Shown: piece by piece, positions 4,084-34,195 of the stretch
How the letters are laid out: every line of letters starts with the position of its first letter
Numbering within the stretch: the stretch's first letter is position 1
Assembly (NCBI GenBank): GCA_963813155.1
Contig: CAWEYG010000005.1
Location: 75,524-139,523, forward strand
Direction: 5' to 3'
DNA length: 64,000 bases
Source of the DNA: an uncultured Acidobacteriota bacterium
Lineage (GTDB): Bacteria > Acidobacteriota > Thermoanaerobaculia > UBA5066 > DATFVB01
Translations under genes and position numbers: made by a program
The notes under the pieces: model-generated
What the model saw: only the letters and a program-made list of their open reading frames with translations
Database searches by the model: none
Told to the model about the DNA's origin: nothing

Positions 4084-4099
4084 GCCGCTGAGGGCGTTG

Positions 4100-7150: not shown

Positions 7151-7675
7151 GCGCGCGATTCGCCAGACCCTACGCGGCCGCGCTGCTCCAGACGGCGCCT
7201 CCGAACTATGATTTCGGGAGTTTCCTCGCGTCCGTTCGCGCGATCGCCGACGCTCTCGCGGCCAGCGGCAGCCTGAGGTCGATCCTTTCGAATCCTTCGG
7301 TTGCGTTCGCGGCCAAAGAGGGGATCGTCGAGGCTCTTTCCGAGAAGGCGGGCCTCGACACGACTGGCCGAAGGTTCCTCCAGGTCGTCCTGCGGAACCG
7401 GCGGTTCCTCGGCCTGTCGGAGATCGCGGGCGCGATCGGAGAGGCGCTCGACGCGCGGGAAGGCGTCGTCCCGGCGAGCATCACCGCCGCGGGAGTGCTT
7501 GCCGCCCCCGACGCCGACCGCGTTGCCGCGGCCCTGTCGGGCGCGGTCGGAAAGAAAGTTCGCGCGACCTTCGAAGTCGACGCGAACCTCCTCGCGGGCT
7601 TCGTGGCCCGCGTCGGATCCAGGATCTACGACGCCTCCGCCCTCGGAGCGCTCGAAAAATTTAAGGAAGAAACGC

Positions 7676-7686
<11 letters not shown>
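7147..7686 (+). CDS. atpH: F0F1 ATP synthase subunit delta (OSCP)
   Basis: [17 protein letters not shown]...; ATGA overlap with the b subunit; located upstream of alpha. Confidence 0.8.
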
Positions 7687-9208
<1,522 letters not shown>

Positions 9209-9218
9209 CCGGCAGACG

Positions 9219-11550
<2,332 letters not shown>

Positions 11551-18092: not shown

Positions 18093-18943
18093 GGCCGCTG
18101 CTCGCCAACATCGAAGAAGTGTTTCGGGAAGCGGCTGCGCGCTGGACGCTCGTCGCGTACTTCGTGCTCTCTTCGCTCTTCATTCTTCTGTTTGCCTTCG
18201 CGGTTAACCTCGACATCGTGAACGGCGCGCTCGCGGGAGCGCGCCTGTTCGGCCAGTCGGTGCAGATGGGGGGACAAGAAATCAGCCTCGACCGCCTCGT
18301 CATCGGCTTCGAGTCGGGCTTCTCCGCGTTCCTCTACGTCGTCGGCACGTTTCTGGCGGTCTTCGCGACCGCCCATCTGACACCGCGGCTCCAGGAAAAG
18401 GGCACGGTCGACCTGTACCTCTCGCGGCCGGTGGGCCGGGTGAGCCTGCTCGCGTCCCGTTACGTGGCGGGGCTCCTCCTCGCGGCCTCGAACATCGTCT
18501 ACCTGATCGGGTCGATCTGGCTGATCGTTCTCTGGAAGACGCACGTCGCGCACCCCCGATTTTTCGCGGCGGGAGCGGTGATTCTCTTCGCGATCGCCGT
18601 CCTTCTCGCATTCTCTTTTCTCATCGGCGTCGTGACCTCTTCAACGGGCGTTTCGATCATGGCCACCTACGGGCTCTTCTTCTTTTCGGCGATCCTCGCC
18701 GCGCACGAGAAGATCGAGGCCGCCGTTTCGCACGAATGGCAGGCGGCGGTCGTTCGAGGCCTGTACTGGATCCTGCCGAAGACTTCGGAGCTCGGGCGCT
18801 CCGCCATCGCCCTGGTCGGCGGCGGACACCTGCCGCGCGCCATCGGCCCGGCCCTTTCCATTGCTCCCTTTGCGACGACCGCCGCGTTCGGCCTCGCGTG
18901 CTTCGCGGCCGCTTCCTGGCTTTTCCAACGAAAGGATTTCTGA
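18089..18943 (+). CDS. ABC-2 family transporter permease
   Basis: Six TM segments; ATGA overlap with the ATPase; internal ATG of ORF 17555-18943. Confidence 0.8.
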   Translation: MRPLLANIEEVFREAAARWTLVAYFVLSSLFILLFAFAVNLDIVNGALAGARLFGQSVQMGGQEISLDRLVIGFESGFSAFLYVVGTFLAVFATAHLTPRLQEKGTVDLYLSRPVGRVSLLASRYVAGLLLAASNIVYLIGSIWLIVLWKTHVAHPRFFAAGAVILFAIAVLLAFSFLIGVVTSSTGVSIMATYGLFFFSAILAAHEKIEAAVSHEWQAAVVRGLYWILPKTSELGRSAIALVGGGHLPRAIGPALSIAPFATTAAFGLACFAAASWLFQRKDF

Positions 18944-19917
18944 TGAAAACCGCGCGTCTTCTCCTGTCGTGCCTGTCGATTTTCGCGTCGGCGGCCGTTC
19001 CGCTTTTTGGTGCGCCGGCCGCGCCGCAGAGCGGGTTGGCCCTCGTGCCTTCCGATTCGATCGCCGTTGCGGTCGTCAGCCTCGATCGGCTTCGATCGAG
19101 CGACCTCGCCCCTTCGCTCTTCCACGAGGCCGACGAGATCACCGTCGATGGAAAGGCCGCGGCGTTTCTGAAGGACGCCGGCCTCGATCCGAAACGCGAC
19201 GTCGACGTCGCGGTCTTCTCCCTTTGCGCCGGAGGCCGCGACGAGGCGCAGCCGCTCGTCGCGTTCGAGGGCAGGTTCGATCCGGCGTCGCTTTCCGCGG
19301 CGACCGCCTCGCGGGGCGGCACGCGGATCGACGGCGCAATTCCGTACTTTCGACTTCCCGCCTCCGCCGATTCCAAGGGACATCGGGGCGATCCGGGCGC
19401 CGTTGCGTTTCTCTCTTCGCGCGTCGTTCTCGCCGGAAGCGAGCCGGCGCTCCTGCACGCGCTCGATCTGTATTCGTCCGGCCGCTCCGGCCTCCCCTCG
19501 AAGGGCGCGCTCGGAGGGATGGTCGCGAAAGTCGATCCCGCGTCCTCGGCCTGGGTCGTCGTCGACGCCGCGCGGGCGCGCGAGTTGAAAGAAGCCTCCG
19601 CTTCGCACGAGTCGGCCGAGGGGCCGGCGGCGACGGTGTATTCCGCCCTGCGTTCCGTGTCCTGGGTCGTATTCCAGGCGAACCTTTCCTCCGGAGGAGT
19701 GGACGTGAAGGCGACGGGTCTCTCCTCCGACGAAGACGCCCGGCAGAACATCGAAGACGTGCTCAAGGGAATGATCGCGGCGTGGCGCATGGCGGTGCAA
19801 TCGAAGAGCCCCGAGCTCGTCTCCGCGCTCCGCAAGTTCACCGTGACGCGGGACAACCAGGGAGTCACGATCGCCGGGCGAATCCCGGCCGAGCTGTTCA
19901 AGACCGCGAAGCGGTAG
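18943..19917 (+). CDS. Secreted hypothetical protein coupled to the ABC-2 exporter (possibly DUF4340-like)
   Basis: Signal peptide MKTARLLLSCLSIFASAAVPLFGA; ATGA overlap with the permease. Confidence 0.6.
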   Translation: MKTARLLLSCLSIFASAAVPLFGAPAAPQSGLALVPSDSIAVAVVSLDRLRSSDLAPSLFHEADEITVDGKAAAFLKDAGLDPKRDVDVAVFSLCAGGRDEAQPLVAFEGRFDPASLSAATASRGGTRIDGAIPYFRLPASADSKGHRGDPGAVAFLSSRVVLAGSEPALLHALDLYSSGRSGLPSKGALGGMVAKVDPASSAWVVVDAARARELKEASASHESAEGPAATVYSALRSVSWVVFQANLSSGGVDVKATGLSSDEDARQNIEDVLKGMIAAWRMAVQSKSPELVSALRKFTVTRDNQGVTIAGRIPAELFKTAKR

Positions 19918-20135: not shown

Positions 20136-20816
20136 ATGGCCGACGTCTTCGAGGAACGCATCGCGCAGGAGGCGCACCTGTACGCGGACGTGTTTCTGCC
20201 GGACGGGGTCGCCCGCCCGCCGCTCGTGATCGCTCTCCACGGCTACGGCGGCGACAAGGTCTCGATGATGAAGCTCGCGCGCCGGATTTTCCGCGACGAG
20301 CTGGCGATCGCGAGCCTGCAGGGGCCGCATCCGCACGTGATCTACCCGAAGGATCGCTCTCAGCCTCTCGGGTTCGGGTTCGGCTGGGTGACGAACTTCC
20401 GGCCGGACGAGTCGATCGCTCTGCACCACGGAGCGGTCCTGGAGTTGCTGTCGCGCCTCGGCGCGCGCGGCGCGATCGATCCGGCTCGCGTTTTCCTGCT
20501 CGGCTTCTCCCAGTCGGTCGCCGTGAACTTTCGGTTCGCGTTCACCCATCCGGAGATCGTTGCCGGCGTCGTGGGGATCTGCGGCGGGATCCCGGGGGAC
20601 TGGGGTGCGGCGGACAAGTATCAAAGCGCGGCCTTCGACGTGCTCGTCGTCGGCGGAACCCGGGACGAGTTCTACCCGCCCGATCGGGTTCGCGCGAACG
20701 CGGAGAAGCTGCGCGAAAGGGCTCGCGCTGTCGAGACGCTGATTCTCGAGGCCGGCCACGAGATCCCGCCCGGATCACAGGAGCCGATCCGAGACTGGGT
20801 GACGCAGAGGCTCTGA
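20136..20816 (+). CDS. Alpha/beta hydrolase (phospholipase/carboxylesterase-dienelactone hydrolase family)
   Basis: PLVIALHGYGGD...LLGFSQS nucleophile elbow...GTRDEFYP...EAGHEI. Confidence 0.75.
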   Translation: MADVFEERIAQEAHLYADVFLPDGVARPPLVIALHGYGGDKVSMMKLARRIFRDELAIASLQGPHPHVIYPKDRSQPLGFGFGWVTNFRPDESIALHHGAVLELLSRLGARGAIDPARVFLLGFSQSVAVNFRFAFTHPEIVAGVVGICGGIPGDWGAADKYQSAAFDVLVVGGTRDEFYPPDRVRANAEKLRERARAVETLILEAGHEIPPGSQEPIRDWVTQRL

Positions 20817-21379
20817 TGGCGGCGCTTCTCTCCCATGCGGTCGCCGGCGCCGGAATCGCGGCGGCGCTCCGCCCGAGCGCGCGTCCCCCCGCTCGCTACT
20901 GGGCTCTCGCGGTCCTGTGCGCCGTCGTGCCGGACTTCGACATCGTCGTCGTGTGGATGGGCACGAACTACCTCGGGATGTTCGGCCACCGGGGTTTCAT
21001 GCACTCGATTTCCTTCGCCGCGGCCCTCGCGGCGGTGCTCTCGTACGGCGCGTTTTCGTCGCCGCGATGGCGGGAGCTGCGGTTCCGTGCCGGAATCGCG
21101 TTTTTCTGTCGCGGGCGTTTCGCATGGAATCCTCGACGCGATGATGAGCGCCGGAAGAGGAGTCGCGTTTTTCGCGCCGTTTTCCCCGTGCGCGTTTTCA
21201 TTTTCCGATCCGGCCGATTCGGGCATCTCCGCTGAGCAGACCACATCCTTCTTCGAGAGGGGGGAATCCGCGTTTCCGCGAGCGAAATCGCCTGGATCTG
21301 GGTGCCTGCCGTGCTGCTTTTCGTTCTGGCGGCCTGGTTCTGGAGGAGCCGCAAAATGAGAACTATCATCCCGGCATGA
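20816..21379 (+). pseudogene. DUF457 (YdjM-like) membrane-bound metal-dependent hydrolase, disrupted by at least 2 frameshifts
   Basis: Frame 2 GHRGFMHSISFAAALAAVLSYGAFSSPRW matches YdjM GHRGFTHSLL...VPEGW. Frame 0 VPESRFSVAGVSHGILDAMMSAGRGVAFFAPFS matches IPADALQGMVLGYLSHILADMLTPAGVPLLWP. The C-terminal TM helix EIAWIWVPAVLLFVLAAWFWRSRK is back in frame 2 and ends in an ATGA overlap with the next gene. Confidence 0.7.
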
Positions 21380-22915
21380 AAACCGCCGAGAAACCGAACC
21401 GCGTCGCTCCGCTCGAAATGGACCCCGAGGAGTTTCGCCGCCTCGGGCGGCGTGTCGTCGACCGCGTCGCCGATTTCCTCGCCTCGCTTCCCGAGCGACG
21501 GGTTACTCCCGGCGAGACGCCCCGGCAGCTTCGGAAGCTTCTCGGGGAAGGCCTCCCTGCCGCTGCGCGGAGCGAATGCCGAAGGATTGCTGGACGAGGC
21601 CGCGCAGCTTCTCATCGAACACTCGCTCTTCAACGGCCACGCCCGGTTCTGGGGCTACATCACTTCTTCGGCGGCGCCGATCGGAGCGCTCGCGGATCTC
21701 CTCGCTGCCGCCGTCAACCCGAACGTCGGCGCGTTCGGGCTCGCGCCGATCGCGACCGAGATCGAGCTTCAGACGATTCGCTGGATCGCGGAGATGATCG
21801 GTTTCCCGGCGGACTGTGGCGGCCTTCTCGTCTCGGGAGGCAACATGGCGAACTTCGTCGGCTTTCTCGCCGGCCGCCGCGCGAAGGCGCCGTGGGACAT
21901 CCGCGGATCGGGGAGCTCCGGCGGCCCGAAGATGTGCGCCTACGCGTCGGAAGAGACTCACACGTGGGTCAAGAAAGCGGCGGACCTCTTCGGCCTCGGG
22001 ACGGATTCTCTCCGGTGGATTCCCGTCGATTCCGGCTACCGGCTTCGCGTTGACGCCCTTCGAGCGGCGATCCGTGAAGACCGCGCCGCCGGATACGTCC
22101 CCTTCCTCGTGGTCGGGACGGCGGGGTCGGTTTCGACCGGCGCGATCGATCCGCTTCCGGAGATCGCCGCCGTCGCCTCCGAGGAGAACCTCTGGTTCCA
22201 CGTGGACGGCGCGTACGGCGGGCTGGCCGCGGTGCTTCCCGACGCGCCCGCCGCGCTGCGGGGCTTGTCGCTGGCCGACTCGGTCGCGGTCGACCCGCAC
22301 AAATGGCTCTACGCGCCCGTCGAAGCCGGATGCACGCTCGTGCGCGACAGGGCCGCCCTGGAGGACACGTTTGCCTATCGCCCCCCCTACTACCACTTCG
22401 AGGAAGAGGACGAGGCCGTGAACTTCTACGAGCGGGGGCCCCAGAACTCGCGGGGATTCCGCGCCCTGAAGGTCTGGCTCGGCCTTCGTCAGGCGGGGCG
22501 GGAAGGATACGAACGGATGATCGCCGACGACATCGCGCTCGCGCAGAGGCTCTTCGAGAAGGCGGCCGCGACCCCCGAGATCGAGACGTTCACGCGAGAC
22601 CTTTCGATCGCGACGTTCCGATTCGTGCCCGAGCGGCTTGCCGGAGCGGGGGCAGAGCACGGCGAATACCTCGATCAATTGAATACCGAGCTCCTCACGC
22701 GCCTCCAGAATGGCGGGGAAGCCTACGTCTCCAACGCCGTCCTCGGCGGGCGATTCGTGCTCCGCGCCTGCATCGTGAATTTCCGCACCCGATCGAGCGA
22801 TGTCGACGCGCTGCCGGATCTGGTGGTTCGGATCGGCCGCGAGGTCGACCGGGACCTCCGGGAGAAAGCGGAAGGCCGGCCCGGCATCCCCGAGGGAAGG
22901 AGAACGAATGGCTGA
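21376..22915 (+). pseudogene. Group II pyridoxal-dependent (aromatic-L-amino-acid/glutamate-type) decarboxylase with a +1 frameshift near 21547
   Basis: N-terminus MKTAEKPNRVAPLEMDPEEFRRLGRRVVDRVADFLASLPERRVTPGETPRQLRKLLGEG in frame 1; the rest (LPLRGANAEGLLDEAAQLLIEHSLFNGHARFWGY...DPHKWLYAPVEAGC...) in frame 2. Removing one G from the GGGG run at 21544-21547 restores a single ~510-aa ORF. Confidence 0.8.
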
Positions 22916-24080
22916 GCCGGTCTGGGCCGATCTGGGCTCCGTGGAAAAGCTGAAAGAAGAGCTGAAGAAGAAGCCGCTTGCGCAGCTGAAGGTCGGCCGC
23001 ACGCCGATCGCGCTGACGTACCGCAACGGGGAATTCTCCGCCGTCTCGGGAGTCTGCAACCATGTCGGCGGCCCGCTCGGCGAGGGGCGACTCGACGGGG
23101 ATTACATCGTCTGTCCGTGGCACAACTACAAGTTTCACTTTCGGACGGGCGAAGGGGAGCCGGGGTACGAGGAGGACAGGGTCCCGAGCTACGCGCTGCG
23201 GGTCGAAGGCGGTCGTCTCCTCGTCAACCTGACTCCGGCGACGCCGCGGCACAAGGTGATGCACGATCCGCATCCGCTCGAGAGGCCGTTGGCTCGGGCA
23301 GATGGCCCGACCCGCGTGCTCGGCATCTCGACGACGGCGATGGACACGGCGAACCCGCGCTATTCGACTTCCGACGCGCTTCTCGAAGCCGCGCTTGCGC
23401 ATGCCTCCGGCGGCCTCGGGGCGGAGACGAAGCTGCTGAGACTGACGGAGCTTTCTTTCCGGACCTGCGAGGGTTACTACTCGAAAAGCGCGCACGCCTG
23501 CACGTGGCCCTGCTCGATCACGCAGATGGACCCGAACGACCAGATGGACCAGGTGTACGACGCGATCATCTTCTGGGCCGACGTGATCCTCGTCTCGACG
23601 CCGATCCGCTGGGGCTCGGCGAGCTCGCTCTATTTCAAGATGGTCGAGCGGATGAACTGCGTCCAGAACCAGATCACTCTTCGCGACCGCGTGATGATTC
23701 GCAACAAGGTCGCGGCCTTCATCATCACGGGCGGACAGGACAACATCCAGGCGGTCGCGGGAGAAATGCTCGGTTTCTTCGCCGAGATCGGATGCCTCTT
23801 TCCGCAGTTCCCCTACATCGCGCACTCGCGGGGCTGGTCCGCCGAAGACATGGAAAACAACATCTCCTACGTCCAGAAGAGCAGGGCGCTGAAGGAGGGC
23901 GCGGAGTCGCTCGTCGAGAGAGCGGTCGCGTTTTCCCGGACGATCGTGGAAACGACGCCGGCGCCGGAAAAAGTCATGCGCGCCGGCCGAAAGGCCGACG
24001 GCCTCGACAACGCGGCGATGGGAGCGAACCTGCTCGCCGGGATGGCCGACGAAGGCGCCCCGAGGGACGAACCGAAGTGA
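22908..24080 (+). CDS. Rieske [2Fe-2S] domain fused to an NADPH-dependent FMN reductase / flavodoxin-like domain
   Basis: CNHVGGPLGEG...CPWHNYKF (Rieske Cys-X-His...Cys-X-X-His) in the first ~100 aa, then the flavodoxin-like fold LGISTTAMDTANPRYSTSDALL...IFWADVILVSTPIRWGSASSLYFKMVERMN...AAFIITGGQDN. Strong RBS GGGAAGGAGAACGAATG; 8-nt overlap with the decarboxylase. Confidence 0.7.
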   Translation: MAEPVWADLGSVEKLKEELKKKPLAQLKVGRTPIALTYRNGEFSAVSGVCNHVGGPLGEGRLDGDYIVCPWHNYKFHFRTGEGEPGYEEDRVPSYALRVEGGRLLVNLTPATPRHKVMHDPHPLERPLARADGPTRVLGISTTAMDTANPRYSTSDALLEAALAHASGGLGAETKLLRLTELSFRTCEGYYSKSAHACTWPCSITQMDPNDQMDQVYDAIIFWADVILVSTPIRWGSASSLYFKMVERMNCVQNQITLRDRVMIRNKVAAFIITGGQDNIQAVAGEMLGFFAEIGCLFPQFPYIAHSRGWSAEDMENNISYVQKSRALKEGAESLVERAVAFSRTIVETTPAPEKVMRAGRKADGLDNAAMGANLLAGMADEGAPRDEPK

Positions 24081-24946
24081 GCGGAGAGTGGCGGCGCCTC
24101 GGGGGCGTCGATCCGAAGGAGCTCTCGGCGGCGCGTCTCGATGTCCATTACGCCGCCCAGATCGTTTCCGCGATCGGCATCACGCACCTTCCCCACCAGC
24201 CCGACGACAGCCACACGAATCTGGAATGGATTCCTTCGAATGAAGCCTTCGGTGGGAACCTCGTTGGCGGATCGCGCGCGTTTCGAGGGGCGCTGCGGCC
24301 CGGCGACTTCACGCTGATGCTGCTCGACGAAGCGGGCCACCGGGAAAGAAAATTGCCTCTTTCGGAGAAGACCCTCGACGAAGGGTACGTCTGGATGGCG
24401 GAGGTGATCGCGGCGGAGACCGGAAAGCCGATGAAACCTCTGGAGCGGCCGGCGTACGAGCTCCCGGAGCACGCCGTCGCGGAGGGCTCTCGTTTTTCGG
24501 TGCCGATGGAGGAGTTCCGCGAGATTGGCCGCTGGTACGGAAACGCGGCCTCGCTCCTGATTTCCCTGATGGGAGAATTTTCCGAAGCCTCTTCCGTTCG
24601 CTGCTGGCCGCACCACTTCGACATCGCGATTCTCCTGACGCTCGGGGAGGGAAAGACGATCGGTCTCGGCCTCTCGCCCGGCGACGCGAGCTACGCGGAG
24701 CCGTACTGGTACGTCACGCCCTACCCGTATCCGAAGAACCCGGAATTGCCGCCGCTTCCGGAAAAGGGGCGCTGGCACACGGAGGGTTTCTTCGCGGCGG
24801 TCCTGACCGGATCGGATCTCCTGTCCGGGGATCTCGGCGACCCAGCGGCAGCGGTCGGAGATTTTTCTTCGCGCGGCCACTCCAAGGCTGTCGCCGCTTC
24901 CTGGAATAGGAAGGCTCTTCGCTACTTCTGGCCGGCTGTGACCTGA
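24077..24946 (+). CDS. Hypothetical protein (GTG start overlapping the previous stop)
   Basis: GTGA overlap at 24077-24080; 289-aa protein-like composition (WPHHFDIAILLTLGEGK..., PYWYVTPYPYPKNPELPPLPEKGRWH); no recognisable motifs. Confidence 0.5.
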   Translation: MSGEWRRLGGVDPKELSAARLDVHYAAQIVSAIGITHLPHQPDDSHTNLEWIPSNEAFGGNLVGGSRAFRGALRPGDFTLMLLDEAGHRERKLPLSEKTLDEGYVWMAEVIAAETGKPMKPLERPAYELPEHAVAEGSRFSVPMEEFREIGRWYGNAASLLISLMGEFSEASSVRCWPHHFDIAILLTLGEGKTIGLGLSPGDASYAEPYWYVTPYPYPKNPELPPLPEKGRWHTEGFFAAVLTGSDLLSGDLGDPAAAVGDFSSRGHSKAVAASWNRKALRYFWPAVT

Positions 24947-27900
24947 GGGATCGGCGCCGTCGTGTCGGACCGGTGGGCCGATTCGATCTCCTCGTGCGAG
25001 GGAAGGTTCGAATGCCCCGAGTGGAAGAACGTCGTGCGGTTCAGCACCTTTTCCTGGAATTCCTCGAGGTAGAGGTAGATCACGGGCGTGACGAACAGCG
25101 TGATGAACTGCGACACGACGAGGCCGCCGACGATGACGAGCCCGAGAGGCCGCCGCGACGCTCCGTCCGCGCCGAAGCCGAGCGCGATGGGAAGCGCGCC
25201 GAAGATCGCCGCGAGCGTCGTCATCAGGATCGGCCGGAACCGGTCCATGCTCGCGTCGTGGATCGCCTGCACCGCCGACTCGCCGCGATCGACGCGTTGG
25301 CGGGCGAAGTCGACGATCATGATCCCGTTCTTCTTGACGATTCCCATCAACATGAACATTCCGACGAACGCGTACAGAGAAGCCTGCTGCCGGAAGATCA
25401 GGAGCGTGAGCAATCCTCCGACGAGCGCCGTCGGGAGCGTCGAGAGAACCGTCAAGGGGTGAACGTAGCTCTCGTAGAGGATCGCGAGGATCACGTACAT
25501 CACGAAGACCGCGAGGATCATCAGGACGGTGAGGTCCCGGACGGTGTTCCTGAACGTCTCCGCCTCGCCCTGAAGGCTCGCGCGAATGCCGGCCGGGACG
25601 ACTTCATGGGCCGTCTTGGCGATGAAATCTGTCGCCGGCCCGAGCGCGACGCCCGGCTTGAGGTTGAAGAAGATCGTGACGCTCGTGAACTGGTTCAGGT
25701 GGTTGACGGCCTGCGGGCCGAGAGATTGTTTCCAGGTGACGAGCTCCCGAAGCGGGACGAGATTCGCCCCGTCGTCGGACTTGATGTAGAGCAGGGAAAG
25801 GTTGTCCGCCTTCTCGCGGCCCTTGTCCTCGACTTCGAGGATGACCTGGTACTGATCGGCGGGTTTCTTGATCAGGTAGACATAGTTCTGAGAATAGGCG
25901 TTGCGAAGGAGAGCGAGGATCCGAGCCTCGGAAACGCCGTACGTCTTGGCTTGATCCCGCCGGATCTCGACGTCGAGGTTCGGCGTGTTGTTGAAGAAAT
26001 CGGACGAGACGGTTTGAAATCCGGGATACTCCCGCAGTTTTGCCATGAGCTTTGTCGAAGCGTCGTAGACCTCCCCGGCGTTCACGCCGGACAGGGAATA
26101 GGCGTACTGTCCCTGGGCCTGGTTCGTCGCTCCGGTCGAGATCTGAAGGACGGGAAAGGGCTGCAGGAACGCAAAGGTCCCCGGGACCGAGCCGATCTCG
26201 CCCATGAGCTTGCCCGCTTCCTGATCGATCGGCGGCCGCTGCCCGGGGGGCTTCAGGAACGTGAAGATGAATCCCTGGTTGGAAGGGAGAAATCCGGAGA
26301 TTCCCGCGACCGAAATCGTCGCGCGGATATTCGGGTCGCGCCAGAGCACGTCGCTCACGTTCTGCTGGATCGCGCGCATCTGGTCGGGGGAGGAGCCCTC
26401 TTTCCCGAGGAAGACGCCGTTGATCACGCTGCTGTCGCCGGTCGGCAGAAAGGCCTTCGGAACCACGTAGAAGAGACCGACGGTCCCGGCGAGGCAGAGC
26501 ACCCAGATCAGCGCGGAGAGCCTCCGGCGCTCGAGAAACCACGTGAGGGAGGATCCGTATTTTCCGAGCACCCGCTTTTCGACGCCGCCGATCACGCGTT
26601 CGATCCAGGTCTGCCGGACGTCCTTGCCGCGGGGCTTCAGGAGCCGCGCGCACATCAGCGGCGTCAGAGTCAGGGAAACCAGGCCGGACGCGAGGATCGA
26701 CACGACGATCGTGACCGCGAATTCGCGGAAGATCCGCCCGACGAGTCCCGACATCAGGAGGAGCGGCAGGAACACCGCCGCGAGCGAGATCGTCATCGAG
26801 AGAATCGTGAAACTGATCTCTTTGGCGCCGTTCAGCGAGGCGAGCAGGGCCGGCTCGCCGCGCTCCATCCGGCGAACGGTGTTCTCGAGAAAGACGATCG
26901 CATCGTCGACCAGAAACCCGATCGCGAGCACGAGAGCCATCAGCGAGAGGTTGTCGAGGCTGTAGCCGAGCGCCCGCATCGCCATGAACGTCAGCAGCAG
27001 GGAAAGCGGAAGCGCGACCGCCGGGATCAGCGTGTCGGTCGCCCGGCCGAGAAAGAAGAAGATCACCAGAACCACGAGAACGAAAGCGATGACGAGTGTT
27101 GCCTGAACGTCGTTGACGGAGTTGACGATGCTTTGCGCGCGGTCGTAGATCGGCGTGACGCGCACCGAGCCGGGCAGCTCCGCGCTGATGACGGGCAGCA
27201 GATTTCGGATACTGCGCGAGACCTCGACGGCGTTGGCTCCCGCCTGGCGGTTGACCGCGACGACGACCGTCGCCGACGGAATCGGATAGCCCTTGACCCA
27301 GAAGCGCATGCTGATGCGCTCGTCCTGGAGCGAGTTCGTCACGGTCGCAACGTCGCGCAGGCGCACCGCCGCCCCGTTCTTCGAACCGACGATCAGGTCG
27401 TCGTAGGCCCGCGCCGTGTCGAGCTGCCCCTGGGGGTTCAGCAGCAGGGTGCCGGAGGCGCTGTCGAGCTGGCCCGCGCCGGTGTAGCTCGTGCCGTTCT
27501 TGATGGCGGCGGCGAGATCGTCCACGGAAATGCCGCGGGCCCACATCGCGGAAGGGTCCGCCTTGATGCGAATCGCCGATTTCGTTCCGAACACGTTGAC
27601 CCGCGAAACGCCCGGAAGGATGCTGATCCGCTGGCCGACCTGCGTGCTTCCGTAGTCGTAGAGCGCGCCGGGAGTGACCGACTCGCTCGTCAGGGCGATG
27701 TACATGATCGGCTGGTCGTTGGGGTTCGTCTTGGAAAACGTCGGCGGCGACGGGAGGTCGACGGGAAGGCTCCCGGTCGCCTGCGAGATGGCCGTCTGAA
27801 CGTCGGTCGCGGCCGCGTCGATGCTCTTTCCCAGCGCGAACTGAAGCGTCAGGCTCGTGTTTCCCTGCGTGCTTTTCGACGTGACGATCTCGAGGCCGTT

Positions 27901-28122
27901 GATCTGCATGAACTGGCGCTCGAGCGGCGTCGCGATGTTGTTGGCCATCGTGTCGGGGCTCGCCCCGGGGTAGCTCACCTGAACCTGGATGACGGGATAG
28001 TCGACCGCCGGAAGGTCGTTGACCGGCAGCTGGCGGTAGCAGAGAACGCCGAAGAGAATGACGGAGACGGTCAGGACCGCCGTCATCACCGGCTTTCGGA
28101 TGAAGGGCTCGGACAGGTTCAC
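24922..28122 (-). CDS. Multidrug efflux RND transporter permease subunit (AcrB/HAE1 family)
   Basis: 1066 aa; MNLSEPFIRKPVMTAVLTVSVILFGVLCYRQLPVNDLPAVDYPVIQVQVSYPGASP...; 12-TM architecture with two large periplasmic loops. Confidence 0.92.
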   Translation of the reverse strand: MNLSEPFIRKPVMTAVLTVSVILFGVLCYRQLPVNDLPAVDYPVIQVQVSYPGASPDTMANNIATPLERQFMQINGLEIVTSKSTQGNTSLTLQFALGKSIDAAATDVQTAISQATGSLPVDLPSPPTFSKTNPNDQPIMYIALTSESVTPGALYDYGSTQVGQRISILPGVSRVNVFGTKSAIRIKADPSAMWARGISVDDLAAAIKNGTSYTGAGQLDSASGTLLLNPQGQLDTARAYDDLIVGSKNGAAVRLRDVATVTNSLQDERISMRFWVKGYPIPSATVVVAVNRQAGANAVEVSRSIRNLLPVISAELPGSVRVTPIYDRAQSIVNSVNDVQATLVIAFVLVVLVIFFFLGRATDTLIPAVALPLSLLLTFMAMRALGYSLDNLSLMALVLAIGFLVDDAIVFLENTVRRMERGEPALLASLNGAKEISFTILSMTISLAAVFLPLLLMSGLVGRIFREFAVTIVVSILASGLVSLTLTPLMCARLLKPRGKDVRQTWIERVIGGVEKRVLGKYGSSLTWFLERRRLSALIWVLCLAGTVGLFYVVPKAFLPTGDSSVINGVFLGKEGSSPDQMRAIQQNVSDVLWRDPNIRATISVAGISGFLPSNQGFIFTFLKPPGQRPPIDQEAGKLMGEIGSVPGTFAFLQPFPVLQISTGATNQAQGQYAYSLSGVNAGEVYDASTKLMAKLREYPGFQTVSSDFFNNTPNLDVEIRRDQAKTYGVSEARILALLRNAYSQNYVYLIKKPADQYQVILEVEDKGREKADNLSLLYIKSDDGANLVPLRELVTWKQSLGPQAVNHLNQFTSVTIFFNLKPGVALGPATDFIAKTAHEVVPAGIRASLQGEAETFRNTVRDLTVLMILAVFVMYVILAILYESYVHPLTVLSTLPTALVGGLLTLLIFRQQASLYAFVGMFMLMGIVKKNGIMIVDFARQRVDRGESAVQAIHDASMDRFRPILMTTLAAIFGALPIALGFGADGASRRPLGLVIVGGLVVSQFITLFVTPVIYLYLEEFQEKVLNRTTFFHSGHSNLPSHEEIESAHRSDTTAPIPQVTAGQK

Positions 28123-29210
28123 GAGTGGGGCCCCGCGACGGCGACCTTTCCGCCGGGCGTGACGGCGAGCTGGCCGTTGACGACGACGCGTTCACCCGCT
28201 TTCAGGCCCTTCTCGATCACGACGAGGGCTTCCTGGGTTTGTCCCGGCACGATCGGGCGCAGCTCGGCCGTCGAATCGGCGGCCACGACGTAGACGAACG
28301 GTCCTTTTGCGGACACCTGGAGAGCCGTTGCGGGAACGAGCACGGCGCCCTTCAGCGTCGCGAGCACGAGACGGACCTTGACGAACCTTCCCGGCCAGAG
28401 CCGATGCTCCCGATTGGGAACGGTGGCCCGCAGGGTGACCGTTCCCGTCGATTCCTGAACGGTGTTGTCGAGAAACGTGAGCGTTCCCGCGAGCGGCTTT
28501 CCGGGCTCGTCGGGAAGGCGAACTTCCACTTTCAGGTCTCCGCGCGCCATGTGCTGCTGGACCTGCGACAGGTCGTTCTCCGTGACCGTGAAGTCGGCGT
28601 AGATCGGGTCGAGCCGCTCGATCGTCAGGAGCGAGGCGCCATTGGGGGCGACGACGTTCCCGAGGTCGACGAGGCGGTGGCCCGCGCGCCCGTCGATCGG
28701 GGAATGGATCGAGCAGTACTGGAGGTTCAGGCGCGCCGCCTTGACCGAGGCGTCCGCCTGCTGCACCTGGGCCTCGTCGACCTGGGCGGTGCTCTTTTTC
28801 GTGTCGTAGTCCGACTGAGAAACGAGCTGCGCCTTCAGGAGGTCCGCGGAGCGGGCGAGCTCCACGCGGGCGAGCTCGCGCGCGGCTTTCGCCTGCGCGA
28901 CATTCGCCTCCGCGGCGTCGAGCTGCGCCTGGTACGGCCGCGGATCGATCGTGAAGAGCAGGTCTCCGGACTTGACGTTCGCCCCGTCGGTGAAATGGAT
29001 CTCGGTGATGCGGCCGGATACCTGCGGGACGATCGAGACGACCTCGCGCGCGACGCACTTGCCGACTTCGTCGGCGTAAACAGGAACGTCCCGCGCGACG
29101 GCCGTTTCGACCGTGACGGGCGCGGGAGGCCGCTGAAAGGCCGCGGGATTATTCTTGCCGCGGCAGGCGCAGCCGAGCATCAACAGCAGGAGCAACTTCT
29201 TGTTTTTCAC
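28119..29210 (-). CDS. Efflux RND transporter periplasmic adaptor subunit (membrane fusion protein)
   Basis: Lipoprotein signal MKNKKLLLLLMLGCA; biotinyl/lipoyl-like and coiled-coil hairpin; ATGA-type overlap with the pump. Confidence 0.88.
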   Translation of the reverse strand: MKNKKLLLLLMLGCACRGKNNPAAFQRPPAPVTVETAVARDVPVYADEVGKCVAREVVSIVPQVSGRITEIHFTDGANVKSGDLLFTIDPRPYQAQLDAAEANVAQAKAARELARVELARSADLLKAQLVSQSDYDTKKSTAQVDEAQVQQADASVKAARLNLQYCSIHSPIDGRAGHRLVDLGNVVAPNGASLLTIERLDPIYADFTVTENDLSQVQQHMARGDLKVEVRLPDEPGKPLAGTLTFLDNTVQESTGTVTLRATVPNREHRLWPGRFVKVRLVLATLKGAVLVPATALQVSAKGPFVYVVAADSTAELRPIVPGQTQEALVVIEKGLKAGERVVVNGQLAVTPGGKVAVAGPHS

Positions 29211-29325: not shown

Positions 29326-30900
29326 CTACCTTTTCGAAATGAAGCTCCACGGGCTGGTCGGCTTTTGCGGCGGCATCGACGGGGAGACGACGGCGTCGAT
29401 TTCCGCGCGGTGGTCTTTCAGGAGGCGCCGAACGGGGACTCCGTCGGCGCCGCGCTCGAGGATTTCGGCGGCCGACTCGTCCATTTTCGCGAGAAACGCC
29501 TCCCATCGGGCCTCGGAAACCGGCATCCCCCGGAAACGCACGTTCGAAAGCTTCGCGAATTCGCGCGTCAGGTATTCGATCTTCGTCTTGATCTCGCCTT
29601 CCGGCGCGAGCGACTCGCTTTCGTAGGGAGTGTGCGGCTTCGGGATGAACGCGTTGACCGAGGGGACGATCGTGGCCATCCGTCCCGTCGATTTCGCTTC
29701 GGCGAGCGCGATGTCGTGGCAATCGGACACGAGGCGCACGAGGTCGCGCACGTCTTCTTCGGTTTCCGAAGGAAGCCCGATCTGCAGATAGAGCTTCAGG
29801 TTGGTGAAGCCGTTCTGGAAGATCATACGGACCTTCTCCCGGAGCATCGAGTCGGAGACCTTCTTGTTGATGTGGCGGCGCAACCGCTCGTTTCCCGCTT
29901 CCGGTGCGATCGAGAGAGACTTTTCGCCTTGCCGCGCGAGGATCGCGAGGATCTCGGGCCGAATCGCGTCGATCTTGATCGACGAAAGAGCGATGTGGAA
30001 CTCGAGCTCGGCGAGCCCGGAGAGGATCGTCTCGATCTCCGGGTGATCGCAGACGGCCGTCGCGATCAGGCCCGCGCGATCCGTGAAGCGGCGCCCGTTC
30101 CGGGCCGTCGCGAGGATCGAGGAGGCGGGATACTGCTTGATCGGCGCCATTGCGTACGCCGCCCAGCAGAACTTGCACATTTCCGTGCAGCCGCGCGAGA
30201 TTTCGATCAGAAGCTTGTCGGAGAGCTCGGTCCGGGGCGTGAGGATGGAAGTGTGCGGGACTTCGTAGTCGGGTCCGATTTCCTTTCGGGACATCGCCTG
30301 CTGGATGACGATTTTGCCGTCCATCGAGCCCTCGGCGCGGGGACCCTGGACGGCGGGAACGAAGAGCCCGGGCACCTTCGCGGCTTCTTCCAGGAACTGC
30401 GACCGGTTGAGACCGCGCTTGAGGAGATTCGAGAGAGGGAGAACGAGCTTCTCTCCATCTCCCATCGCGAAGATGTCGAGAAACGGGGTCAGGGGGGCTG
30501 GATTGATCCGCGAACAGTCGCCTCCGATGAGGAGAATCGGGTGGCGCTCGTCACGGTCGCGAGCCCTCCGCGGAATCCGCGAGAGGTCGAGGGTCTTCAG
30601 GAGATTGAGGTAGTCCATTTCCCAGGAGACCGACCAGGCGAGCAGGCCGAATTCCGAAAGCGGCGTTCGCGATTCCAGGGTCTCCGCCGGGGCTCCGGCC
30701 TCGTAGAAAAACCGCTCGCACACGACATCCTCGACGCGGTTGAAAAGACGCAGCACCCACTGGAAGCCGAGATTCGACATCCCGACTTCGTAGGAGTTCG
30801 GGAACCCGAGCGCGACGCGGTACGCGCCGAATCGCTTCGGCTCCTCGAGGGGCCTTTCCGACGCGAGTCGGGCTCGTCGATTCTCTTCGTATCCCGGCAT
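29326..30900 (-). CDS. Radical SAM protein (TIGR03960-like uncharacterised radical SAM family)
   Basis: CxxxCxxC motif ISRGCTEMCKFCWAAY; start at the internal ATG that follows the YceI gene stop. Confidence 0.65.
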   Translation of the reverse strand: MPGYEENRRARLASERPLEEPKRFGAYRVALGFPNSYEVGMSNLGFQWVLRLFNRVEDVVCERFFYEAGAPAETLESRTPLSEFGLLAWSVSWEMDYLNLLKTLDLSRIPRRARDRDERHPILLIGGDCSRINPAPLTPFLDIFAMGDGEKLVLPLSNLLKRGLNRSQFLEEAAKVPGLFVPAVQGPRAEGSMDGKIVIQQAMSRKEIGPDYEVPHTSILTPRTELSDKLLIEISRGCTEMCKFCWAAYAMAPIKQYPASSILATARNGRRFTDRAGLIATAVCDHPEIETILSGLAELEFHIALSSIKIDAIRPEILAILARQGEKSLSIAPEAGNERLRRHINKKVSDSMLREKVRMIFQNGFTNLKLYLQIGLPSETEEDVRDLVRLVSDCHDIALAEAKSTGRMATIVPSVNAFIPKPHTPYESESLAPEGEIKTKIEYLTREFAKLSNVRFRGMPVSEARWEAFLAKMDESAAEILERGADGVPVRRLLKDHRAEIDAVVSPSMPPQKPTSPWSFISKR

Positions 30901-30944
30901 GAACCCTTGATTATAAGGGATTTTCGGCGCTTTCGCGCGGCCGG

Positions 30945-31574
30945 CTAGTTCTCGGCGACGGCCCAGAGGTGGAAGATGACGGTCAGAGGATCCTGGATCC
31001 GGTTGAAGACCGTCGACATGTTTCGAAGGCCGTACTGCTTCCAGTGGATCGGCACGGCGCCGGCAACCAGGATGTGGTCCTCGAGCACGGCGCACTGAAC
31101 CGACGCCTGGAGCGGTTTGCTCACTCCGTGGATGACGACGTCGGCGGAGAGCTCCACCGTTACGGTCGAGCCGGGGCCGAACCCCGACAGATTTCCCTTG
31201 TAGCTCTTTCCTTCGAACACGATCTCCGGGAACTGCGAAGCCTCCAGGACCTTGTCGCGCAGGACGGCGTTGCGGCGCGCATTCCCGGTCTCAAGCGAAT
31301 CCGCGCGAAAACCGATTCGGGAACGAAGAACTCCGGGGTTTCTCGGATCCACTTCCGCGCTTCCGCTCCACGATCCGATCGTTCCGTGGACGAGGTGAAA
31401 CGTGGTCGGAAGCTCGAAGGAGATTTTCGATTTCTCTGGCACGAAACGGTACTTCAGGACGCGGGGAGGCGGGGCGAGAGCGACAGGCGCGTCGGTCGAC
31501 GAGCCGCCGCCCGTCTGGGCGAACGCGGGAGCGCAGGCCAGAATCGCGAGCGGAATCCAGCGAAAGAACTTCAC
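30945..31574 (-). CDS. YceI-like (polyisoprenoid-binding) periplasmic protein
   Basis: Signal peptide VKFFRWIPLAILACAPAFAQ; YceI-like beta-barrel length (~210 aa); GTG start. Confidence 0.6.
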   Translation of the reverse strand: MKFFRWIPLAILACAPAFAQTGGGSSTDAPVALAPPPRVLKYRFVPEKSKISFELPTTFHLVHGTIGSWSGSAEVDPRNPGVLRSRIGFRADSLETGNARRNAVLRDKVLEASQFPEIVFEGKSYKGNLSGFGPGSTVTVELSADVVIHGVSKPLQASVQCAVLEDHILVAGAVPIHWKQYGLRNMSTVFNRIQDPLTVIFHLWAVAEN

Positions 31575-31584
31575 GCGCGTAATA

Positions 31585-33063
31585 CTAGCAGGCGCCGGGT
31601 TCCGGCACGATCGGGTACGGATGGTCCTCGAAGACTCGCGGCCGGATGCCGCGGAACGGATCGACGATCCGGCGAAGCCGCGGAAGCACCCTCCACCGCG
31701 GCCGGGGAAGTGGGAGGTACATGCACCAGCGCGTGAGCCGTTCGACGACCGGCTGTTGCGCTTCGAAAGAGTTGACGACGTTCCGGTGCTCACGGCCGAA
31801 CCGTGAAAGCTCCTCGAGGTACCACTCCCGCGGCAGCTCGGGGGAGAAATAGAAGAACGGCTCGAGCAGGTTCGCGTCCGGCGCAATCAGCCCTTCGGCC
31901 CGAAGGATGCGCTCCAGACCCGTCCGCGGATAGACCCGCACGCCGTTGGTGATGTAGACGAGGTCCGACGGCGGGATCCGACGATCGATGAAGTCGAACG
32001 TCTCGGCGACGGTGTCCGGGTTCTCCCCGGGCGAGCCGACGAGAAAGACCCACACGGCCGGAATTCCGTGGCGGGGCAGCCACCGCGCGATCTTCTCGAC
32101 ATCGGCCCGGCCGAAACCCTTCTGCATTCGCTTCAGGACCGAATCCGACGCCGACTCCACGGTGCACGTCGTCGCGACGAAGCCGCCCTTTTTCATCAGC
32201 GCGACGAGCTCCTCGGTGACGCCGACCGGATTGAAACCCGCCGCGGTGAGGCGGACCTTGAGGCCGCGAGCGAGAATTCCGTTCAGGATTCCGCGCGCCT
32301 GCACCGGAGGATGGGAGAAGACCGCGTCCACGAACTCGAAGAATTCGGCGCCGAGGGAATTCGCGCGCGCGATTTCCTCCACCACCTCCGGGACGGGACG
32401 GAACCGGTAGCGAACTCCCTCGAGCGTCCCGTACGTGCAATACGTGCAGGTGAACCCGCAACCCCTCTTCGTCTGGATGGGAAACACTCCTTCGCGCCGC
32501 ATGTACGTCTTCATGTCGAGATGACGGAAGAGGTCGGGGTCGGGAAGGCCGTCGATCGGCTCGGAGGAATGGAGGGCGTTGTGGAGGAGCCGGCCGCTGC
32601 GGCGGACGACGAGCCCCGGAATGTCGTCGAACGGGATCCCGGCCGCCCAGCGTCGGAGCAGATCGGGAAAGCGCTTCTCGGCGTCGCCGTAGAGAATCGC
32701 GTCCGGCGAGACTTCTTCGAAGACTCGAACCGGCTCAATGGCCGCGCCCGCGCCCCCGAGGATGAGGGGAGCGGCGGTGATTCGCCGAAGGCGCGAGAAG
32801 AGCTCGCAAATCTCGGGAACGAAGTACTTCGTTCCGATCAGGTCGGAGTTGTCGACGTTCCGCATCGATACCCCGACGAAATCGGGGCGAAAATCGTCGA
32901 TCACCCGCTTCAGTGGAAGCGAGGAGTCCTCCTCCCACATCAGGTCGACGACGCGCGCTTCGATCCCGTCTCTCTCGAGCTGCGCGGCCACCAGGCAAGG
33001 ACCGACCGGCACCACGGGGTAGGGCGTCCGTTCCCGGTTCGTCGAAACGAGGAGGACCTTCAC
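31585..33063 (-). CDS. B12-binding domain-containing radical SAM protein (candidate methyltransferase)
   Basis: N-terminal B12-binding Rossmann-like region MKVLLVSTNRERTPYPVVPVGPCLVAA..., radical SAM cysteine triad RGCGFTCTYCTY; 492 aa. Confidence 0.8.
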   Translation of the reverse strand: MKVLLVSTNRERTPYPVVPVGPCLVAAQLERDGIEARVVDLMWEEDSSLPLKRVIDDFRPDFVGVSMRNVDNSDLIGTKYFVPEICELFSRLRRITAAPLILGGAGAAIEPVRVFEEVSPDAILYGDAEKRFPDLLRRWAAGIPFDDIPGLVVRRSGRLLHNALHSSEPIDGLPDPDLFRHLDMKTYMRREGVFPIQTKRGCGFTCTYCTYGTLEGVRYRFRPVPEVVEEIARANSLGAEFFEFVDAVFSHPPVQARGILNGILARGLKVRLTAAGFNPVGVTEELVALMKKGGFVATTCTVESASDSVLKRMQKGFGRADVEKIARWLPRHGIPAVWVFLVGSPGENPDTVAETFDFIDRRIPPSDLVYITNGVRVYPRTGLERILRAEGLIAPDANLLEPFFYFSPELPREWYLEELSRFGREHRNVVNSFEAQQPVVERLTRWCMYLPLPRPRWRVLPRLRRIVDPFRGIRPRVFEDHPYPIVPEPGAC

Positions 33064-33073
33064 TTCGGATCTC

Positions 33074-34195
33074 TCATCGAATGCCGAAAACCCAGTCGGC
33101 GACGTTGGTGCCCGTGATCCCCGGGCGAAACCGGTCGCCGAGTGTGTCGAAGAATGCGGCGGAATCGTGGCGAAGGAGAAAGTCCGGCGCCGAGAGCCGC
33201 AGCTTTCGCGCGCGGTCGATCGTCGTGCCGTCGGCGAAAGCGCCCGCGTTTCCCGAATTGCCGTCGATCCCGTCCGAGCCGCAGGCGAGCAACCCGGGCG
33301 CGCTTCCGGCGAGCTCCTGAGCGGCGGCGAGCGCGAACTCCTGGCTTCGCCCGCCGGTTCCGGAACGAGAAGGGCGCCGAACCGTCGTCTCTCCCCCCGC
33401 GAGGAGAACCCGGGGCGACCGGCGCGCGCAAAGCCGCGCGGCGAACGCCCGTCCCTGCGCGGCGGCCTCGCCCGAAAGGGAAACGCGCTCGATTCGCGCG
33501 GAGAGTCCGCGCGCGCGGGCGAAACGGGCGGCGGCCTCGAGTCCCGTCCGGTTCCCGGCGAGAAGCCACGTTCGGTCGCGCGGTTTGCGGCTGCTCACAG
33601 TCGGTCCCGAGCCGACGATGCGAAAGTCCCCTTCCGGCACGTCGGACAGAACGAGCGTCACGACGCGGGCCCGGGTCGCGTCGGCGAGCCTGCCCCCCTT
33701 CACGAGAGAGAGGGATGTTCGTAGCCGGTTGATTTGCTGAATCGGCCATCCTTTCTCCATCGCGCGCCGGATCCTTCGCTGTTTCTCTGCAAGGGTCACG
33801 CCGCGTCGCGGAAGGCAGAGGAGCGAGGAAGTTCCTCCCGAAACGAGGGCAAGCACGAGATCGCCCTCGTCGAAACGGCGAAAGAACCGGAGCGCCGCCT
33901 TCGCGGCGGCGAGGCTCTCCCGGTCGGGGTCCGGGTGGGAGGCAAAGCGGGTAAAACGCCGGAGACGGGGGAGAACGCGCGATCCGTGCGGGACGACGAT
34001 GAGCGCGTCGTGAAAAGTTTTTCGGGGGACGCCCGCGGCCATTCCGGCGGCAGCTTTTCCCGAAGCGAAAACGCCGATTCTCTCGCCCGAAAGATCGAGC
34101 TTTCCCGACCGGAAGAATTCGGCGACGAGCGCCTCCGGATCGACGGCGGAAAGCGCCGCTTTCCAGAGCTCGCGGAGCAGCCGCCGGCCTTCCAC
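33074..34195 (-). CDS. Glycerate 2-kinase (MOFRL family / hydroxypyruvate reductase TtuD-like); start uncertain (GTG 34195 or ATG 34255)
   Basis: LVSGGTSSLL...VLLAGGETTV...LACGSDGIDGNS motifs of the MOFRL glycerate kinase family. The ATG at 34255 would lie only 5 bp from the divergent gene's start. Confidence 0.65.
   Translation of the reverse strand: MEGRRLLRELWKAALSAVDPEALVAEFFRSGKLDLSGERIGVFASGKAAAGMAAGVPRKTFHDALIVVPHGSRVLPRLRRFTRFASHPDPDRESLAAAKAALRFFRRFDEGDLVLALVSGGTSSLLCLPRRGVTLAEKQRRIRRAMEKGWPIQQINRLRTSLSLVKGGRLADATRARVVTLVLSDVPEGDFRIVGSGPTVSSRKPRDRTWLLAGNRTGLEAAARFARARGLSARIERVSLSGEAAAQGRAFAARLCARRSPRVLLAGGETTVRRPSRSGTGGRSQEFALAAAQELAGSAPGLLACGSDGIDGNSGNAGAFADGTTIDRARKLRLSAPDFLLRHDSAAFFDTLGDRFRPGITGTNVADWVFGIR

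Follow-up and report, generated by a model that had tools for sequence, protein, structure and literature searches.

We analysed a 64,000-nucleotide stretch of DNA from an uncultured acidobacterium (hereafter the window; contig CAWEYG010000005.1 of assembly GCA_963813155.1, positions 75,524 to 139,523). One of its genes joins an N-terminal Rieske domain to a flavodoxin-like domain of the FMN_red family, and the encoded fusion belongs to a large family of soluble iron-sulfur flavoproteins that is uncharacterised and conserved to an unusual degree. The gene that follows the fusion, referred to here as the third gene, encodes a protein resembling DUF5996. Both lie in an operon specific to the lineage of this Thermoanaerobaculia-like acidobacterium and made up of an Abhydrolase_2 gene, a ydjM-like gene, a group II decarboxylase gene, the fusion and the DUF5996-like gene, and across genomes the fusion and the third gene are the sole recurring unit within it. 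An earlier note on this DNA had read the last three genes as a cassette for tailoring an amine-derived metabolite. We are confident that the conserved fusion is real and that it makes up a conserved unit with the third gene, with the decarboxylase outside. With less assurance, and blending a structural and comparative part with a proposed electron path, we favour reading the two proteins as an uncharacterised Rieske-mediated electron-transfer pair.

A widespread and strongly conserved Rieske-FMN_red fusion

The fusion is an intact gene whose two domains both score above their Pfam cut-offs (Table 1), as the earlier note had surmised from the CNH...CPWH motifs and a flavodoxin-like C-terminal half. 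The four Rieske ligands, C50, H52, C69 and H72, were invariant both in an alignment of 24 close members (A1) and in one with divergent members added (A4). This domain has no bc1-type disulfide cysteine pair, and its best structural matches in Foldseek searches were the Rieske ferredoxins of dioxygenases, with a template modelling (TM) score of about 0.8. For the FMN_red domain the nearest solved relative was RosB (5mji), identified both in sequence-profile searches (E 1e-5) and in Foldseek (E 1.1e-8, TM 0.58 on the target, 15% identity); proteins of the MsuE, SsuE, AzoR and WrbA types matched the fold as well (4c76, 6dqi, 4n65 and 1ydg). The protein belongs to the Rieske and FMN_red Pfam families and to no characterised subfamily. 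In the AlphaFold2 (AF2) model of the whole fusion the predicted local distance difference test (pLDDT) score was 77, and a cysteine-rich loop in the flavodoxin-like domain fell below 50. The three cysteines of this loop (C187, C198 and C202) and C251 were invariant in A1, and C202 alone was invariant in A4. An additional [4Fe-4S] cluster on these four residues, of the kind found in the iron-sulfur flavoprotein Isf, was considered as a candidate and was weakened by the survival of C202 alone in divergent members.

The earlier note had described the architecture as uncommon, and this did not hold. Homology was significant (E ≤ 0.001) for 7011 of the 8000 candidates scored, and the best 120 homologues listed all spanned the full length, had both domains and showed 65-100% identity. 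In a scan of one genome per species the fusion was present in at least 577 species genomes. With thousands of full-length homologues of identical architecture it is a single gene, and the possibility raised in the earlier note that it might resolve into two separate genes can be set aside. The best 80 genome loci encoded proteins 61-71% identical to that of the window and spanned the Acidobacteriota, including Thermoanaerobaculia, as well as Planctomycetota, Gemmatimonadota, Nitrospirota, Myxococcales, Kiritimatiellales, Nitrosopumilaceae archaea and others. Across phyla and archaea, full-length homologues ranged from 61 to 91% identity. When the protein library was clustered at 50% identity, the full-length family collapsed to very few representatives, indicating that its conservation is unusually high. 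One member of the representative library, a 574-amino-acid (aa) protein (P0362), has its Rieske and FMN_red core preceded by two zf-CDGSH domains and one Fer4_19 domain, a domain set that fits and supports an electron-transfer role for the family. In four Nitrosopumilaceae loci (L024, L069, L075 and L080) the fusion was 62-63% identical to the acidobacterial protein, which implies transfer between domains of life and strong constraint.

The fusion and the third gene recur as a unit

The third protein is, judged from its sequence, at best a distant relative of DUF5996 (PF19459), a Pfam family that is itself without function in the literature that we searched. Its C-terminal match to this profile was weak (20.7 bits, below the curated cut-off of 25), and 14 of the 28 members of the third family matched at E ≤ 0.01. 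The AF2 model had a pLDDT of 93.4 and a predicted TM score of 0.91, and neither Foldseek nor sequence-profile searches returned a relative in the PDB. The polar residues invariant in the third family are H24, D43, H46, E149, the stretch R175-C-W-P-H-H-F-D182 and D203, in the numbering of the homologue P0121; the invariant motifs include D-D-S-H-T-N and R-C-W-P-H-H-F-D, and these would give an invariant surface rich in His, Asp, Cys and Glu.

We searched the 80 best fusion loci in genomes with the proteins of the window and, reciprocally, examined 80 metagenome loci selected for encoding a member of the third family. The third gene was directly adjacent to the fusion in 16 of the 80 genome loci. 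These were 13 of the 21 Acidobacteriota loci, 2 of the 13 from Gemmatimonadota and the single one from Bacillota; adjacency was seen in none of the 21 Nitrospirota, 11 Planctomycetota or 4 Nitrosopumilaceae loci. At these 16 loci the third gene was mostly upstream of the fusion; in some it was downstream, and in one it lay on the opposite strand. The fusion adjoined the third gene in 22 of the 80 metagenome loci, with the third gene first on the same strand in 12, the two genes convergent in 9 and the fusion first in 1. The decarboxylase, on the other hand, was absent near the fusion from all 80 genome loci, 68 of which extend at least 1.6 kb upstream, and was likewise absent near the third gene from all 80 metagenome loci encoding the third protein. 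The test of co-conservation proposed in the earlier note therefore upheld the last two genes of its cassette and not the first. This conserved adjacency leads us to regard the fusion and the third gene as linked in function.

Individual relatives of the window locus bear out the same division. Locus L166, which is syntenic with the window and whose fusion is 81% identical, has the fusion and the third gene with a 4-nucleotide (nt) overlap directly after the orthologue of the window gene at 18943-19917, and lacks the Abhydrolase_2, ydjM and decarboxylase genes. Locus L082 (fusion 71% identical) encodes at 7742-9930 a decarboxylase, then, after a 4-nt overlap, a 234-aa protein with an FGE-sulfatase domain, and then the fusion. 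In L164 (79%) the fusion stands alone. From these relatives and the locus counts we conclude that the decarboxylase block is a variable insertion and that the fusion and the third gene are the stable unit.

Other Rieske fusions adjoin the third family

At 17 further loci, members of the third family sit in tight operons with a second or a third kind of Rieske fusion, or both. In one of these a Rieske domain is joined to a thiamine diphosphate (ThDP) enzyme (TPP_enzyme_N/M/C, ~650 aa), and in the other to the FMN domain of glutamate synthase (Glu_synthase, ~540 aa). Among such loci are L088, L092-L095, L109-L112, L120, L128, L132, L145, L147, L152 and L158, and gene order varies among these operons (L094, L120, L128 and L132). 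In L094 the cluster comes after nqrE-nqrF-apbE. Any one of the three Rieske fusions was adjacent in 16 of the 28 third-family loci with at least 1.3 kb of sequence on both sides, and in 12 of the 18 with at least 2 kb; the other well-flanked loci were devoid of any Rieske motif. A GGPLGEG...CPWH signature is common to the FMN_red and ThDP fusions in their Rieske domains. The presence of the third family beside three types of Rieske fusion suggests that several Rieske-tagged electron-input modules serve it. A bolder reading, which we consider rather unlikely, is that the DUF5996-like proteins are an unrecognised class of terminal redox proteins, probably metal-dependent and with a fold absent from the PDB, that are served by dedicated electron-input enzymes, each with an N-terminal Rieske "plug". 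The input modules would then be FMN_red for NAD(P)H, the ThDP enzyme for 2-oxoacids and the glutamate-synthase-type FMN domain, and the pair in the window would be one version of a modular system.

Frameshifts in three genes of the operon

Three of the five genes do not read through as sequenced. The decarboxylase region (21376-22915) is 1540 nt long, or 513 codons plus one base, and is not one open reading frame (ORF): its first 59 codons are in frame 1 (MDPEEFRRLGRRVVDRVADFL..., 21376-21552) and the remainder is in frame 2 (from ...LPLRGANAEGLLDEAAQ, 21554-22915). A tblastn search with the 512-aa orthologue of L001 split accordingly, with residues 1-59 in frame 1 and 49-511 in frame 2. When the DNA was aligned to L001 and to L167, which is 96% identical, a single extra base fell at 21550-21553, the +1 frameshift that keeps the gene from being an uninterrupted ORF of ~500 aa. 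Without this base the protein has 512 aa, equal to the L001 orthologue, and orthologues in general have 511-524. The third gene does have the 289-aa ORF, from a GTG at 24077 to 24946, that the earlier note had reported. This ORF matches homologues of 274-282 aa over ~87% of its length, and its last ~35 codons are out of frame relative to them. A frame walk and DNA alignment to L169 identified two single-base insertions, at ~24838 and ~24877, that scramble the C-terminus. The start therefore stands and the length does not: the corrected gene stops at a TAG at 24907-24909, ahead of the convergent gene downstream, and encodes 276 aa like the intact P0121 of L169. In ydjM, a frame walk against the YdjM of L001 revealed +1 insertions at ~21106, ~21189 and ~21245, the frame passing from 2 to 3 to 1 and back to 2. 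In total there are six frameshift events, all of them +1 insertions. Three of the six were mapped by comparison with close relatives: at ~24838 and ~24877 a C has been added behind GG (CGG[C]GACC and CGG[C]CACT), and the one in the decarboxylase falls within GGCC. Such a pattern could reflect a systematic artefact of base calling.

We favour sequencing or assembly error over real decay, as the probable though not assured explanation, because all six events are insertions, because the sequence past each shift keeps ~80-96% identity to intact orthologues, and because the gene for the RND (resistance-nodulation-division) efflux pump is called in three pieces in L168, the contig of the nearest relative, which hints at error-prone assemblies in the clade. 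Against this, the frameshifts are clustered, four within ~450 bp (21.1-21.55 kb) and two at 24.84-24.88 kb, and nearby genes are intact. We therefore also considered that the operon may be decaying in this genome, in which case the frameshifts of its three affected genes would be real and the fusion alone would remain functional. The restriction of six indels to three of the five operon genes, with the flanking genes and the fusion intact, is what such decay would look like, and the protein database gave a 100% match to the fusion (P0001), whereas neither the decarboxylase nor the third protein had one there. These missing entries would fit annotation of the two genes as frameshifted or as pseudogenes. 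Decay would have to be reconciled, however, with six events of the same sign, with the lack of further decay past the shifts and with the fragmented RND gene of L168, a contig from a neighbouring clade, which is typical of indel-prone assemblies; we regard it as unlikely. The six insertions are accordingly to be treated as probable errors in any annotation of the contig. The idea that the whole window is riddled with frameshifts was rejected: Pfam coverage or comparison with L001 showed the other genes to be intact, and where ORF pairs overlap elsewhere in the window each ORF is an intact gene of its own (gidA, gidB, parA and those for ATP synthase, a kinase, radical SAM proteins and an S9 peptidase).

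A proposed electron-transfer role for the pair

In our model, the flavodoxin-like domain of the fusion would hold flavin mononucleotide (FMN) and take hydride, probably from NAD(P)H; single electrons would then leave by way of a low-potential Rieske cluster of the ferredoxin type, and the DUF5996-like protein would be the likeliest acceptor or partner, possibly through a metal site. We put forward this full path, from NAD(P)H to FMN to the Rieske cluster to the DUF5996-like partner, tentatively, and with less conviction than the broader idea of an electron-transfer pair. A link of the pair to redox or electrophile stress may also be envisaged. Several points weigh against the model. It is the Pfam family that suggests NAD(P)H use and FMN binding; the third protein may be a metalloprotein, which is a guess from its invariant residues; and a second iron-sulfur cluster on the four cysteines appears doubtful from the alignments. 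In the literature that we searched we found no experiment on, or report of, either the fusion family or the third-protein family. About 40% of the third-family loci with good flanks lack a nearby Rieske gene, and 64 of the 80 genome fusion loci have no adjacent third gene, so that the fusion there works without the third protein or with a partner encoded elsewhere.

This last observation also favours the main rival to our model, in which the fusion is a stand-alone quinone or electrophile-stress reductase, similar to WrbA or AzoR with a Rieske exit, and the third gene is a member of a stress regulon and not a redox partner. The neighbourhoods of the fusion in other phyla point the same way. 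Although the fusion has no universal neighbour across phyla, its loci in Nitrospira (for example L015, L029, L032, L047, L051, L055 and L057) include genes for two Glyoxalase/VOC proteins and for DSBA-like, Pirin, NmrA-like, DoxX and DUF5069 proteins. All of these apart from DUF5069 also count in favour of the rival in some Nitrosopumilaceae, and Pirin, glyoxalase or both are common to the fusion loci of the two groups. An Abhydrolase_2 gene is part of the operon in the window, and DinB is found in L082 and L164. Such gene sets resemble quinone and electrophile stress regulons, for example that of Bacillus MhqR. Against this rival, the third family lies beside Rieske fusions of three kinds, the gene order varying and the ORFs often overlapping or nearly abutting, which argues for a specific Rieske-related partnership. 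We therefore judge the stand-alone role to be distinctly improbable, if still the strongest of the competing functions, and retain the electron-transfer pair.

The decarboxylase is an ordinary enzyme outside the pair

The assignment of the decarboxylase gene to group II in the earlier note was correct. The match to PF00282 scored 216.6 bits against a cut-off of 27, and the translation contains the motif D-P-H-K (AVDPHKW), which fits the (S/D)-x-H-K consensus for the lysine that binds pyridoxal phosphate (PLP). The closest solved structures are a tryptophan decarboxylase (4obu, E 4.7e-67) and DOPA decarboxylases. No NCBIfam equivalog passed its threshold among those for L-2,4-diaminobutyrate decarboxylase, tyrosine decarboxylase and others (best 189 bits against a cut-off of 900). 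The group II fold and the PLP lysine motif are common to this protein and to bacterial aromatic-L-amino-acid and tryptophan decarboxylases such as that of Ruminococcus gnavus (4obu), from which the window gene differs in being frameshifted. We conclude that it is an ordinary enzyme of the aromatic-amino-acid type that is co-transcribed here and lies outside the system formed by the fusion and the third gene.

The pathway envisaged in the earlier note, in which the decarboxylase would make a biogenic amine that the fusion and the third protein then tailor oxidatively, is close to refuted by the absence of co-conservation. Support for it comes from relatives of the window locus: in L001, whose fusion is 85% identical, the trio is present and co-oriented with the same 8-nt and 4-nt overlaps as in the window; the decarboxylase and fusion of L167 also overlap by 8 nt; three proteins (P0004, P0246 and P0125) suggest the trio in another close relative; and a decarboxylase is still nearby in L082. 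But the decarboxylase was missing from both sets of 80 loci and from the syntenic L166, an extra gene separates it from the fusion in L082, and the chain of overlaps runs on upstream into two unrelated genes, ydjM and Abhydrolase_2, so that the coupling is not specific to the trio. No oxygenase catalytic domain was detectable, and no evidence pointed to an amine metabolite. We consider this pathway very unlikely. Least probable of all is that the C-terminal domain acts like RosB (8-demethyl-8-aminoriboflavin-5'-phosphate synthase), with FMN as a substrate for flavin modification and the Rieske cluster supplying or removing electrons: although 5mji was its closest solved relative, the best Foldseek match and the sole significant sequence match in the PDB, RosB lacks a Rieske domain, the 15% identity covers a generic flavodoxin-like core that MsuE, SsuE, AzoR and WrbA match too, and no other roseoflavin-type genes are nearby in the window.

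Layout of the operon and its surroundings

The five co-oriented genes overlap or abut at their ends on the + strand from 20.1 to 24.9 kb (Table 1). The Abhydrolase_2 gene, whose product is 81% identical to its L001 orthologue, meets ydjM at TGATG with a 1-nt overlap, and the ydjM stop overlaps the ATG of the decarboxylase by 4 nt (ATGA). The overlap of the decarboxylase and the fusion is 8 nt, ATGGCTGA, preceded by AAGGAG, within a junction that reads GGGAAGGAGAACGAATGGCTGA; the fusion stop and the GTG start of the third gene overlap by 4 nt (GTGA) in a junction that reads CCGAAGTGA. The last two junctions are as the earlier note described them, and its coupled cassette is indeed overlapping and co-oriented; the run, however, is of five genes including ydjM and Abhydrolase_2, and its decarboxylase is frameshifted. 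High third-position GC content backs the stated reading frames as coding. A scan of the sequence for promoters and terminators returned no promoters, and terminators at the level of shuffled sequence.

The convergent genes for the RND pump form the downstream boundary and lie outside the module. They are absent from the corresponding position in L001, L082 and L166 and present in L168. Beyond them on the - strand are two radical-SAM genes (29326-31290 and 31585-33594), one with a Radical_SAM_N2 domain and the other with a B12-binding domain, both of which are syntenic downstream of the module in L001, L082 and L166. Elsewhere in the window, gidA, gidB and parA are followed by genes for the alpha, gamma and beta subunits of ATP synthase (1524-4849 and 7277-11550); these are housekeeping loci that are often found near the chromosomal origin.

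Table 1 Coordinates of the operon genes, their annotated features and the downstream boundary (window positions)
Feature	Position	Strand	Basis and remarks
Abhydrolase_2 (phospholipase/carboxylesterase) gene	20136..20816	+	First gene of the overlapping five-gene run; PF02230, 38.5 bits
ydjM-like membrane hydrolase gene	20816..21379	+	Three +1 insertions; PF04307 on first 97 aa
Group II PLP-dependent decarboxylase gene (aromatic-L-amino-acid decarboxylase-like)	21376..22915	+	PF00282; 512 aa after removal of one base
Single extra base frameshifting the decarboxylase	21550..21553 (GGCC)	+	DNA alignments to L001 and 96%-identical L167
Rieske and FMN_red fusion gene, intact, 390 aa	22908..24080	+	Pfam, alignment A1, AF2 model, Foldseek
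Rieske domain	22953..23192	+	PF00355 on aa 16-95, 50.7 bits against cut-off 20.3
Rieske ligands C50, H52, C69, H72	23055-23057, 23061-23063, 23112-23114, 23121-23123	+	CNH and CPWH motifs
Flavodoxin-like FMN_red core	23361..23807	+	PF03358 on aa 152-300, 37.3 bits against cut-off 24
Cys-rich loop C187-x10-C198-x3-C202	23466-23513	+	C251 at 23658-23660
Third gene, DUF5996-like	24077..24909	+	GTG start; 276 aa after removal of two extra bases
Two single-base insertions (~24838, ~24877) scrambling the third-gene C-terminus	24836..24878	+	Frame walk; DNA alignment to L169
RND efflux pump and membrane-fusion protein genes, convergent	24922..29210	-	ACR_tran 937.8 bits, HlyD_D23; downstream boundary, outside module

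Discussion

The systems that the pair most resembles are the ferredoxin and reductase components of multicomponent Rieske oxygenases (for example CarAc/CarAd, BphA3/BphA4 and TodB/TodA). As in these, the Rieske domain of the fusion is of the ferredoxin type with CxH...CxxH ligands, and it presumably receives electrons from NAD(P)H through a flavin module. In the fusion, however, this module is an FMN_red domain joined in cis and not a flavin adenine dinucleotide (FAD)-dependent ferredoxin-NAD reductase, and the recurrent neighbour is a DUF5996-like protein. An oxygenase alpha subunit, combining a Rieske domain with a mononuclear-iron catalytic domain, is absent from the window, where a single Rieske motif occurs in 64 kb, and the third protein has no Pfam match of the Ring_hydroxyl type. 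The pair resembles the reductase-plus-ferredoxin half of such a system and, lacking an oxygenase subunit, does not qualify as a member.

Other comparisons concern the flavin domain. The fusion has in common with SsuE, MsuE, AzoR and WrbA an FMN_red match above the cut-off and the fold, and differs from them in its N-terminal Rieske domain, its cysteine-rich insert and its far higher conservation. Isf of Methanosarcina is, as predicted for the fusion, a flavodoxin-like FMN protein with an iron-sulfur centre that transfers electrons. Isf binds its [4Fe-4S] cluster on a compact N-terminal cysteine motif; the iron-sulfur centre of the fusion is instead a separate Rieske domain, and its cysteine loop (C-x10-C-x3-C...C) is spaced differently and is lost in divergent members.

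Taken as it was first proposed, namely as a cassette for amine tailoring that includes a rare fusion, the locus is not special. What deserves attention is an uncharacterised fusion whose identity stays above 60% between Acidobacteriota and nitrifiers, bacterial as well as archaeal, together with its frequent neighbour, whose confidently predicted structure finds no counterpart in the PDB and whose gene repeatedly lies beside three types of Rieske-tagged redox enzyme. The pairing of this fusion with a DUF5996-like protein, and the related pairings with other Rieske fusions, appear to be undescribed in the literature searched. If the pairing does serve electron transfer, it would represent a modular redox system of a new kind, common among the bacteria of soils and sediments, and would provide a testable function for two large families of uncharacterised proteins.

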